Below are positions 5,154 through 9,386 of a DNA stretch of 64,000 bases, in pieces. The stretch covers positions 7,316,001 to 7,380,000 of the forward strand of contig OX597829.1 of NCBI GenBank assembly GCA_951406725.2. The letters run 5' to 3'. Position numbers and translations under genes: made by a program. The stretch is from Octopus vulgaris. Its lineage: Eukaryota. Each line of letters begins with the position of its first letter. Positions within the stretch are counted from its first letter, which is position 1. The notes beneath the pieces are model-generated. The model was not told the DNA's origin, did no database searches, and saw only the letters and a list, made by a program, of their open reading frames with translations.

Positions 5154-6781
5154 ACATATATGTATATATACGTTCGTCTATGTAAGTATTCGTATGTTGT
5201 ATGTATATATATATACATATATGTATATATATATATATATATATATATATATATATATATATATATATATATATATATATATATATATATATATATATAT
5301 ATATATATATATATATATATATATACATACATATATGTATGTATTTATGTTTCTCTCTGCGTTTATTCCACTGATGAGGCAAACCATTTCTAAATGCAAA
5401 GGATGTGGAATTATCCAGTAATTTTTCACTAGTTTTATTTTGTCTTTTTGTCTTCTCTCCTTGTGCTATATGAACACTTAATGTGGTCTTAGAGTCAGAT
5501 CCTGGCTGCTATTTTCAGCATGACGGTATCTCGTAGATACCCTAAGTTATAATTTTAATAGTAATTATTACCTCTCAAAGGTTTTTATTTCCATGGTGCC
5601 CACTTGATAAGATCGTTATTTAATTTAAATTAACGATCTTATCCTATATACATATATATATATATATATATATATATATATATATATATATATATATAAT
5701 ATGTTACATACTCGGTATCAAGATAAAACTCTGAGTTTCAGATGCCGTGACTACCGAGTAATGTCATATTATAGATAAATATACATATATATATATATAT
5801 ATATATATATATATATATATATATATGCGTCATATATATATATATATATATATATGAAGCCGCATGATGAACCGGATATTTTTATATTTCGGGATGTTAG
5901 TTATATATTTGTTCTTCATTTTAACTTTACCATTGTTCTTATTTTATGTCTTTTGTCTGAAAACTTTCGTAACACATCCTGTTACCTCTTCAGCGGCTCT
6001 CCATTCAACCTGCCTCTTCCTGTTTCGCTTACTCCATTCCATTCTGTCTTTCTATGCTGGGTATCACCGCACATGCATTTGCGTCTGTATCCGTTTCCTT
6101 TTCTGCCTGTGTTTTCTATGGGTGAATTTTGTGTGTGCGTGTGTATGCGCGTGTCTGTGTGTGTATGTGTATGTGAAGCTGAATTATAGGCAGAAACGTG
6201 TCAGACAATTATCTTACGTATTTTCTAATATCATTTTAGTTCCAATCTTTTTGAGTTCTTTTGTTTCCTGTTCACTCAGTAAAGTTTGGTTCGACTAAAC
6301 GCTTTGCAGACCGCCAACAAATATGGAACTTTTGAAAGAATTTTGTTCGGAGAAAAGCTACAGAGACAGAAAAACACCTTGAGATAGTTTGTTAGAATCC
6401 ATTATCTTGTGCGTTCAAATCCTACCGTGGTTGAATTTCATTCTTTCATTCTTCTGGGGCCGATAAAATTAATCAGTTGCCTTGCACTTTGTAATGAATC
6501 TACACACGCACAGGCACATATACATACACGTACAACACACACACACACACACACACACACACACACACACACACACACACACACACACACACACACACAC
6601 ACACACACACACACATATATATATATATATATATATATATATATATAATTTACAAGATAAGATAAGAGCAAAAGAAAAATTTTGATGCCAAATATGCCGG
6701 AAAAAAGACAATAATTGGCAATAAACCATTATAATTTATGCGTCTCGAAACAAACCGATAGAAATCTCTAAAAAATTCGTT

Positions 6782-6844
6782 ATTACCGTATTGGACCAAT
6801 TTCGGGGTTAATTCGTAAGAAATTTTCCCCTCTTCAGCGGCAAA
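6782..6844 (-). ncRNA. Type I hammerhead ribozyme (intact core)
   Basis: tttgccg CTGAAGA gggg...cccc GAAA ttggtccaa TA cggtaat. Confidence 0.8.
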
Positions 6845-6907
6845 TACGGGACTTAGTGCTTGCTTTTTCCATGGATATGAGTAAGTATCTCACTTATATC
6901 TCGCGTA

Positions 6908-6970
6908 TTTGCCGCTGAAGAGGGGAAAATTTCTTACGAATTAACCCCGAAATTGGACCAATACGGTAAT
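6908..6970 (+). ncRNA. Type I hammerhead ribozyme (intact core), predicted cut after A6963
   Basis: gccg CTGAAGA(6915-21) gggg aaaatttcttacgaattaa cccc GAAA(6949-52) ttggaccaa TA cggt. Confidence 0.8.
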
Positions 6971-7381
6971 AACGAATTTTTTAGAGATTTCTATCGGTTT
7001 GTTTCGAGACGCATAAATTATAATGGTTTATTGACAATTATTGTCTTTTTTTTTCGGCATATTTGGCATTAGAATTTTTCTTTTGCCCTTATCTTGTAAA
7101 TTATTCATAAATTTAACCTTTAAAGGTGTTTTTTGATATGCTGGCCATTGATAAAAATTTTTTCCCGAAAAAAAATTTTATCCTACATTAGTTATAAATT
7201 GAATAGTGCTCACTTCCGGATTCTCTCACTTTGTGAAAGTTTCTCGTTCGAATCACACGTGTCTCGAGATGTGCCGAAGATTTTTCTATTTTGGATATAT
7301 TTGGGGTACTTAGGTCTGCTCGGGACTTAGTGCTTGCTTTTTCCATGGGTATGAGTAAGTATTTCACTTATATCTCGCGTA

Positions 7382-7444
7382 TTTGCCGCTAAAGAGGGGA
7401 AAATTTCTTACGAATTAACCCCGAAATTGGACCAATACGGTAAT
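7382..7444 (+). ncRNA. Hammerhead copy with G5A core mutation (probably inactive)
   Basis: Same as 6908-6970 but CTAAAGA at 7389-7395. Confidence 0.7.
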
Positions 7445-7504
7445 AACGGAATGTTTAGAGATTTCTATCGGTTTGTTTCGAGACGCATAAATTATAATGG
7501 TTTA

Positions 7505-7908
7505 CTCTTACTCTTTTACTTGTTTCAGTCATTTGACTGCAGCCATGCTAGAGCACAGCCTTTAGTCGAGCAAATCGACCCTGGGACTTATTCTTTGTAA
7601 GCCCAGTACTTATTCTATCGGTCTCTTTTGCCGAACCGCTAAGTGACGGGGACGTAAACACACCAGCATCGGTTGTCAAGCAATGTTAGGGGGACAAACA
7701 CAGACACACAAACATATACACACACACTTATATATATATACATATATACAACAGGCTTCTTTCAGTTTCCGTCTACCAAATCCACTCACAAGGCATTGGT
7801 CGGCCCGGGGCTATAGCAGAAGACACTTGCCCAAGATGCCACGCAGTGGGACTGAACCCAGAACCATGTGGTTGGTTAGCAAGCTACTTACCACACAGCC
7901 ACTTCTGC
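7505..7908 (-). mobile_element. tRNA-derived SINE (family B)
   Basis: Reverse complement of the full copy at 48052-48496, including the (taaaagag) tail. Confidence 0.9.
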
Positions 7909-9386
7909 AATTATTGTCTTTTTTCGGCATATTTGGCATTAGAATTTTTCTTTTCCCCTTATCTTGTAAATTATTTATAAATTTAACTTTTAAAGGTATT
8001 TTTTTGATATGCTGGCCATTGATAAAAAAAATTTTTCCCGAAAAAGTTTTATCCTACATTAGTTATATAAATATATATATATATATATATTTATATATAC
8101 ATACATACACACAAATATATAGTGAATGCAAACAAACATATGAAAAAACTAACACGAGGACGTGGTGCAAGTATTATCAGACGCTCGGGAAAGGAAAGAA
8201 ACGTTTCGAGCAAAGCATTTTTTCTTCAGAAATAGAGGAAAGTCCAAAAGAAGGGAAGACGGAGGAAGAAAATCGCCAACGTTTCACACGTTGTTAATAT
8301 ATATATATATATATATATATATATATATACATACACATTTACACACAATAAGACAGACGAATACACACAAACACTTATTCCCCCCCCCCACACACACACA
8401 CACACGCATAGTCATAGTCAATCTGATATAACGAATAAAATGATTAAGAGAAACGACATTTTGACATGGAATTCCTCTCTTTCCTGATGAAGTCCAGAAC
8501 AACGTAATTTCGATAAGTATAAATCTGGAGACTTAATCCCATACTGCCACTCCGTTGGATGTACCAGTAATTATAAACATTACTGAGTTACTTGATATTA
8601 CAGAGAAAAGTCTTAGAACACAAAGTTCTAAAAAGAGTGTTTTCTATTGATTTGGAACATAAGAAAACATAAAGCATAAAGAAAAGAGGCACGTGACTTT
8701 TGTGAGAAGAGAAGTTAGATGAAAGAAAACATAAAAGAGATACAGAAAGAACCAAAGGTAAGGTTTAAAAAGTGCAGGTAGTAAAAAGAAAGACAGAGAG
8801 AAAGAGAAAGAGAATGTGGAGATAAGGTGTTAGGAATGCAATTTTCGTCTTATTTCTATCGCCTTGTATGTGATAATGGCAAGAGTTTATAAATATACGA
8901 GCGAGATGAAGTTCAACGTGAAAGAAAACGAGTGAGGACAAAATTATATTGTGATTGACCCAGTAGAAACAGCAGCAGCAGCAACAGGGTGGAAGAATAA
9001 AAATGGGATGAATGAGAAAATATGGGAGAGGAACAGACGGACAGGTAAAATACGGATAGTAAAGCGACAGTGAGAGTAGGTAAGAAGGACAGAGAGAAAG
9101 CAGGTGATGGAGGGAGAAAAAGATATAGAAAGGTGATGTTAGTTTCGTCACAGTGACAGAGTAATAGAAGATACTGTGTAAGCTAGAAATGTGTGGCATT
9201 TAAAATCAAAGTGAGACGACATGGAAAATTATTAAAGGAAAAATACAATCAGACATGGAATGCCCCCCACCGGACACCAGATAGAGGATCTGCCAAGTTT
9301 CAACGCGTTTAAGTCTGGTGACTTAGTATAAGATATTACTCCTCCAGATACGTCAGTAATTAATATCGTTGAGGTATATATATATA

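Follow-up and report, generated by a model that had tools for sequence, protein, structure and literature searches.

The locus described here lies in a 64,000-nt stretch of the Octopus vulgaris genome (contig OX597829.1, positions 7,316,001 to 7,380,000; hereafter the window), and raises the question of what kind of element a tandem repeat with hammerhead motifs and without an open reading frame (ORF) represents, which machinery inserts its copies, and which RNA serves as their template. The best explanation, to which we assign a probability of roughly 85%, is that it belongs to a family of non-autonomous elements, of the animal non-LTR retrozyme kind, that are copied into (TA)n by the reverse transcriptase (RT)-endonuclease of a Penelope-like element (PLE).

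Anatomy of the window locus

The locus consists of an inverted arm placed head-to-head with a complete unit, followed by a second unit split by a later insertion, with (TA)n on either side (Table 1). The first-pass annotation had reported two hammerheads in tandem with predicted cut sites 474 nt apart, a third and intact one in an inverted 5' arm, and no credible ORF in the unit. All of this was reproduced: the coordinates and the period were recomputed, the third core was found on the minus strand, and the longest ATG-initiated ORF in the six frames of 6847-7504 has only 52 aa. Neither coding capacity nor an LTR organisation was seen in the unit.

Table 1. Features of the hammerhead repeat locus, in window coordinates.
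Feature	Position	Strand	Remarks
(TA)n target tract, left end	6617..6647		
Inverted 5'-truncated arm, unit 55-258	6648..6851	-	Ends at the short 3' site, without tail
Hammerhead 0	6777..6848	-	Intact core CUGAAGA (CTGAAGA) at 6837-6831; predicted cut after 6789
Unit 1	6847..7320	+	474 nt, 33.5% GC, without ORF
Hammerhead 1	6904..6974	+	Type I, intact core CTGAAGA at 6915; predicted cut after A6963
~95-nt "tail", from unit ~258 to ~353, where the family has its fixed 3' ends	7105..7199	+	
Promoter-like region, internal (putative)	7200..7320	+	CACTTCCGG at 7211-7219, CACGTG at 7256-7261
Unit 2, 5' part	7321..7504	+	96.7% identity to unit 1
Hammerhead 2	7378..7448	+	Core CTAAAGA at 7389, G5A = A7391; predicted cut after A7437
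Later insertion, ~400-nt high-copy interspersed repeat	7505..7907		
Remainder of unit 2, unit positions 189-350, with tail	7908..8067	+	Ends at the long 3' site, then (TA)n

The inverted arm meets unit 1 at a 2-nt CG microhomology, and over 151 nt its complementarity to that unit reaches 98%. In hammerhead 1, stem II pairs GGGG with CCCC and continues into a distal helix, while stem III is palindromic. The tail has a strongly conserved 5' half and a hairpin on its 3' side, and would be the region where the RT binds and initiates. Downstream of it, CACTTCCGG and CACGTG, which we take to be promoter-type motifs and which are mostly retained in the sister subfamilies, suggest an internal promoter. 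The insertion in unit 2 is presumably a SINE; no tRNA was found in it by ARAGORN, it lacks a target-site duplication, and at most 4 nt of the unit were lost.

In the window, Rfam gave no match at the gathering threshold, and an e-value search likewise returned no hammerhead family, so that the hammerhead call rests on the core motif and on covariation. The Rfam match to MIR9563 corresponds to the hairpin of the inverted arm.

A dispersed family of ORF-free tandem repeats

A search of the 2.8-Gb genome with the 474-nt unit yielded 3,366 first-look candidates, 40 of which were scored, and the 3' motif of the unit has 1,559 genomic matches (0 in the reversed control). The window locus is thus a member of a family of ORF-free tandem repeats that is scattered through the genome in thousands of copies. 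Besides subfamily A, there is a subfamily B with a ~476-nt unit, 75-80% identical, and a subfamily C with a 497-nt unit, 74% identical, in which the hairpin region of the tail is lengthened (L229, 1946-2825); both have the layout of A. Subfamily D is distant, with 72 candidates, and has a hammerhead and tail similar to those of A (L230, ~3270-3620). C and D agree with A in stem III type and tail motif. Outside the ribozyme, the best conserved part is the 5' half of the tail, where 1 of 48 columns differs between subfamilies; covariation in the tail is weak (3/18 pairs).

The copies are partial tandems, set in (TA)n, whose 5' ends are truncated at random positions. An exact pattern recovers 155 tandem pairs, and array size ranges from 1 to ~2.7 units. 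The multimeric arrays that the first-pass annotation had proposed to look for therefore exist as dispersed partial tandems of up to ~2.7 units, and no longer array was found among the best 40 matches to a 2.6-unit query. At 106.79-106.96 Mb of G000:C8, a single subfamily-B insertion recurs every ~20-35 kb, within a segmental duplication array.

No cephalopod retrozyme was found in the literature searched, although supplements, Repbase and Dfam may contain the family; hammerheads, ribozymes and retrozymes are not mentioned in the main text of PMC13282606.

Conservation and fold of the hammerhead

Genome-wide, the hammerhead pattern has 496 exact and 2,126 relaxed matches, as opposed to none of either kind in the reversed control, and these matches are not due to chance. 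Across subfamilies A and B, 94.5% of the cells are paired and 10 of 21 pairs have changed on both sides, in all three stems, a tally over 33 hand-picked copies (32 distinct) that counts sequences sharing descent and not independent events. None of 500 shuffles scored as high, and slid controls reached 26-47%. Between A and B, none of the 12 core columns differs, compared with 10/77 and 14/121 in other regions; stem III is palindromic throughout, and the core is intact in 75 of 90 copies. By these alignments the ribozyme is under selection, and the covariation suggests that the unit RNA would cleave itself.

The first-pass annotation had seen in the 1-nt loop of stem III a feature suited to dimer pairing. 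This needs correction: such a loop cannot close in a monomer, where stem III would have 4 bp and a 3-nt loop; the alternative is an intermolecular duplex (-8.9 kcal/mol). In the minimum free energy (MFE) fold of the monomer, CUGA is mispaired with UUGG, and in isolated motifs stems I and II form while the core is mispaired. The hammerhead may accordingly be activated as a dimer or with the help of a protein (PMC4209133, PMC11167929), which the mispaired core of the single-motif fold fits. It differs from the minimal PLE hammerhead (min-HHR), described as having a short helix I and no helix III (PMC4209133), in its proximal helix I of 6 bp and its palindromic, covarying helix III of 4-5 bp. The predicted fold of a circular monomer is stable (z -4.9 against 40 shuffles).

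State of the window copy

The G5A change is private to unit 2 of the window, with G at this position in 143 of 144 aligned copies, and a monomer spanning 6964-7437 would contain this core only. In a transcript reading through both arms, hammerhead 1 is predicted to be paired with the inverted arm (-317 kcal/mol). The SINE-labelled insert is not part of the monomer, being located 3' of the second cut site, and would be no block to its release, which G5A would be. Thus, of the two lesions to which the first-pass annotation had attributed the crippling of this copy, the G5A change stands and the insertion does not, while the burial of hammerhead 1 in the hairpin with the inverted arm is an additional cause. 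The copy, an old product whose units are ~3% apart, is probably dead as a source of working monomer. Li et al. (bioRxiv 2026.07.22.740005) call loci with two consecutive complete hammerheads active; in the window G5A leaves the second one incomplete, and both are complete at other loci, such as L012. The window locus is a long but non-working, otherwise ordinary member of the family.

Insertion footprints

A census of 74 loci with 131 arms on chromosome C1, taken from the first 100 listed of the 1,559 matches to the 3' motif, revealed where the copies end. The 3' ends of 61 arms lie near unit position 353, those of 49 near 258 and those of 21 elsewhere, so that 110 of the 131 fall at two sites. 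At 54 loci there are arms on both strands: a long end is combined with a short one at 45 of these, both ends are long at two and short at none, and seven are irregular; the two fixed ends, ~95 nt apart, are thus distributed one per arm in 45/54 cases. The window copy obeys this rule, its inverted arm carrying the short end and its direct arm the long one. A TA-type run adjoins 103 of 112 classed arm ends, compared with a background of 11%, and inverted arms also span the unit junction. Two complete tandem hammerheads occur at two of the 74 loci, and both are intact at one of these.

Partial tandems, an inverted 5' copy, a one-sided tail of 30-40 bp and a bias towards (TA)n are traits described for PLEs (Craig et al. 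2021, PMC8557442). Purified PLE protein cuts AT-rich DNA on either strand (Frangieh et al. 2024, PMC11167929), and RT initiates in vitro at two internal sites that flank the PLE tail (PMC11167929). L1-type twin priming on one unit was ruled out, given that the arms overlap in unit coordinates and their outer ends are fixed. The family belongs with the non-LTR retrozymes and non-autonomous PLEs, and its insertions directly record mobilisation by PLEs. A mechanism can be built on what is observed: the structure of the copies, their TA targets and two fixed 3' ends, truncation at random 5' positions, arms that read through the cut site, and a ribozyme under selection. In it, the PLE protein would nick both target strands of (TA)n, cDNA would begin internally, at unit ~258 and at unit ~353, and two truncated cDNAs would be joined head to head, leaving an inverted arm and a one-sided tail.

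Some loci depart from the common form. In L116 (G000:C2:39528300-39532300), head-to-head arms of two subfamilies, ~16% apart and both with long ends, are separated by ~200 nt, and represent either neighbouring insertions or a two-RNA event. In L145, L180, L188, L191, L193 and L195 the arms begin at nearly equal unit positions, forming near-perfect palindromes that apparently start at self-complementary sites. L136 seems to have a target-site duplication, longer than 10 nt, beside the TA run.

Relation to coding PLEs

Coding sequences linked to the unit were sought in 327 stretches (279 distinct loci), with flanks of 0.3-2.7 kb and, as queries, four PLE RT-EN proteins and one ORF1. At none of the 279 loci was an RT plus GIY-YIG ORF found between pLTRs, and no unit at these loci runs into a PLE ORF. 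Searches through GIY-YIG domains, the window's own PLE, subfamilies B and D, and the tail motif likewise yielded no linked ORF. Apparent links between unit and PLE at L042/L062 and L306 were ruled out by intervening (TA)n. The first-pass annotation had proposed a non-autonomous, ribozyme-carrying retroelement, to be abandoned if the unit always formed the terminus of a coding PLE and never an ORF-free multimer; the 155 ORF-free tandem pairs, together with the absence of coding-PLE termini among the 279 loci, support its proposal.

A genome search for GIY-YIG domains with PF01541 gave 6,136 candidates, of which 150 were scored. The genome contains many intact RT+GIY-YIG PLEs of 781 aa, with a C-x4-C-x2-C linker, and its autonomous PLEs terminate in (TA)n, some having a ~30-nt tail and others lacking it (L061 as opposed to L062, L065 as opposed to L069). 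Among the 52 PLE-search loci compared (~51 distinct), none has a terminal repeat of its own that matches the unit, the one match being an adjacent insertion that is represented twice. The lack of an autonomous partner in this comparison, a tail of ~95 nt against the 30-40 nt described, and the scarcity of two-hammerhead loci are points against the best explanation.

Origin of the tandem units

The tandems could instead have grown like a satellite, with single insertions expanded locally through duplication or through unequal crossover (a route proposed in bioRxiv 2026.07.22.740005). Units are indeed closer within a locus (~3.4-3.5%, median 3.4%) than between loci (~7.8%). However, the arrays are partial, with fixed ends and random starts, the inverted arms cross the unit junction, and the 2.6-unit query met no array longer than ~2.7 units among its best 40 matches. 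For the dispersed copies, barring long arrays with internal breakpoints, this very improbable origin is refuted, while an unassembled master array is possible. Hardly more probable, and largely refuted, is the reading of the unit as only the pLTR of an autonomous PLE, whose truncated insertions would be the copies. Every structural mark of the family is one of PLE termini (PMC8557442, PMC4209133), and PLE protein remnants flank 17 of the 279 loci. Against this, 15 of the 17 remnants lie beyond a microsatellite and the other two reflect insertions nested in an unrelated PLE, and arrays that continue past the tail enter the next unit and never an ORF (of 43 tails, 15 are followed by the next unit, 24 by TA, four by other sequence and none by an ORF).

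For a non-autonomous element copied by PLE protein, the nature of the template has to be weighed further. A unit-length RNA, set free by two hammerhead cuts, may be circularised by ligation, and on this circle the RT may pass more than one round and so regenerate tandems of identical units; we consider the chances of this sequence of steps about even. Recurrent differences between the units of 85 tandem pairs show no preferred direction (96 in the same and 106 in the opposite direction, permutation p=0.77), and 61 rare variants are common to copies within a locus, rare meaning present in at most 3% elsewhere, so that small subfamilies count. Random direction and shared rare variants argue for units that were identical at insertion and for a frequent monomer bottleneck. 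A ligated circle accounts for the identical units and for the persistence of tandems as well as for the conservation of the ribozyme, and a circular template requires initiation at internal sites. No indels were found at the junction (positions 116-120) in ~153 aligned copies. The whole family may, tentatively and at somewhat less than even odds, be read as a fossil record of rolling-circle retrotransposition, in which a Penelope RT would start at two internal sites of a ribozyme-made ~474-nt circle and continue past one round.

The same PLE-driven family could alternatively descend from uncleaved linear multimers, transcribed from rare master copies with two promoters, the hammerhead being otherwise used (in trimming or regulation) or acting late; this is a serious candidate, if on balance a doubtful one. 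In vitro, hammerhead cleavage is dispensable for an autonomous PLE and uncleaved RNA is the main substrate (PMC11167929). Uncleaved RNA equally predicts that 5' ends do not pile up at the cuts: 70 of 131 arms cross the cut site and only three have 5' ends within 5 nt of it, a background level, as is the 6 of 38 at-risk long arms ending within 10 nt of the upstream cut. The latter come from a sample of 77 long arms, taken from the first 78 of the 155 tandem matches with one segmental duplicate dropped. The upstream cut had seemed to stop arms (8/11 5' ends), but the larger sample did not bear this out. Long arms are softly limited at unit ~435-7, directly downstream of the promoter-like motifs: 8 of the 10 arms at risk stop 110-157 nt 5' of the upstream cut, just ahead of the second hammerhead, a post hoc count (~p=0.02 by hand) in which L338, one of the two survivors, is under-extended. 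Such thinning is more readily expected of a linear transcript that has a start site than of a circle, and arrays with two promoter regions do occur (L012, L022, L207/L217). On the other hand, the last unit has no such limit (hazard ~0.11 per 25 nt), linear arrays would lose one promoter per generation, the expected position-specific differences between first and last units are absent, and the lineage has survived ~25% divergence with near-identical units at each locus. The unit and subfamily C are covered by contigs of presumed RNA runs, which carry no information on ends, strand, level or circularity and count for neither template. A junction read or divergent RT-PCR would be undiagnostic for a circle, because the genomic tandem has an identical junction.

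Relation to known retrozymes and PLEs

The metazoan non-LTR retrozymes include mussel repeats of 350-390 nt, within a given range of 150-450 nt (Cervera & de la Pena 2020, PMC7229834). With them, the octopus family shares an ORF-free tandem unit with one type I hammerhead each, a GC content below 50%, thousands of copies, autonomous PLEs alongside and a stable predicted circle (PMC7229834). In contrast to them, its units of 474-497 nt are longer, its arrays, of fewer than ~3 units, are scattered and take the form of partial tandems that have inverted arms and a PLE tail, and its cleavage and circular RNA are predictions. Li, Clavereau & Pollet described retrozymes as non-autonomous PLE derivatives, on the basis of co-occurrence and pLTR phylogeny in vertebrates, and proposed local amplification (bioRxiv 2026.07.22.740005). 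The octopus family is of this class, and its 474-nt unit falls inside their range of 51-972, but its footprints point to tandems formed during insertion, and a related pLTR was not found among the PLE loci compared.

Partial tandems, an inverted truncated 5' copy, a one-sided tail, AT/TA targets and a hammerhead upstream of the tail are common to the family and to PLE termini (PMC8557442, PMC11167929), whereas the octopus unit lacks an RT/EN ORF and its tail is ~95 nt long instead of 30-40 nt. MRC1 and other non-autonomous PLEs of Chlamys are also non-coding, form pLTRs, insert head-to-tail and are moved by PLEs (PMC8557442). As described there, most of the Chlamys elements lack canonical hammerheads, and the 3' end of the non-autonomous elements usually matches that of an autonomous family; for the octopus unit no such match was found among the 52 loci compared.

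Both the mover of animal retrozymes and the circle as template are proposals in the literature considered here. The octopus family places a PLE-specific mark, that of two start sites, on an ORF-free hammerhead repeat with thousands of copies and several subfamilies. It offers a compact test system, with one ~470-nt RNA and candidate RTs in the intact 781-aa PLE ORFs of the same genome, with which one could ask whether the template is circular or linear and what the PLE hammerhead does. Rolling-circle copying, if true, would tie the circles of animal retrozymes mechanistically to the PLE machinery and explain how PLE-type tandems are regenerated.

Other PLE-type sequences in the window and genome

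The 781-aa PLE of L061 (1745-4090) is preceded by an ORF of ~360 aa (406-1485) and has many copies with full-length open frames; elements of this type may have been recently active. In the window, a 5'-truncated PLE ORF at 43395-44426 (+) extends from the RT thumb to the endonuclease region, with a 3' repeat to ~45100 that ends in (TA)n. The family to which it belongs is very large, with 21,861 first-look candidates, and its terminal repeat is unrelated to the 474-nt unit. A C-terminal PLE endonuclease fragment with its own 3' repeat lies at 40057-40296 (+). Elsewhere, L039 contains, at ~207 and ~455, a hammerhead-bearing element of a different family, arranged head-to-head and with a long stem II. 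Further hammerhead-like motifs are present in the window at 21939 (+), 23232 (+) and 5997 (-), and probably derive from other PLE-type families.
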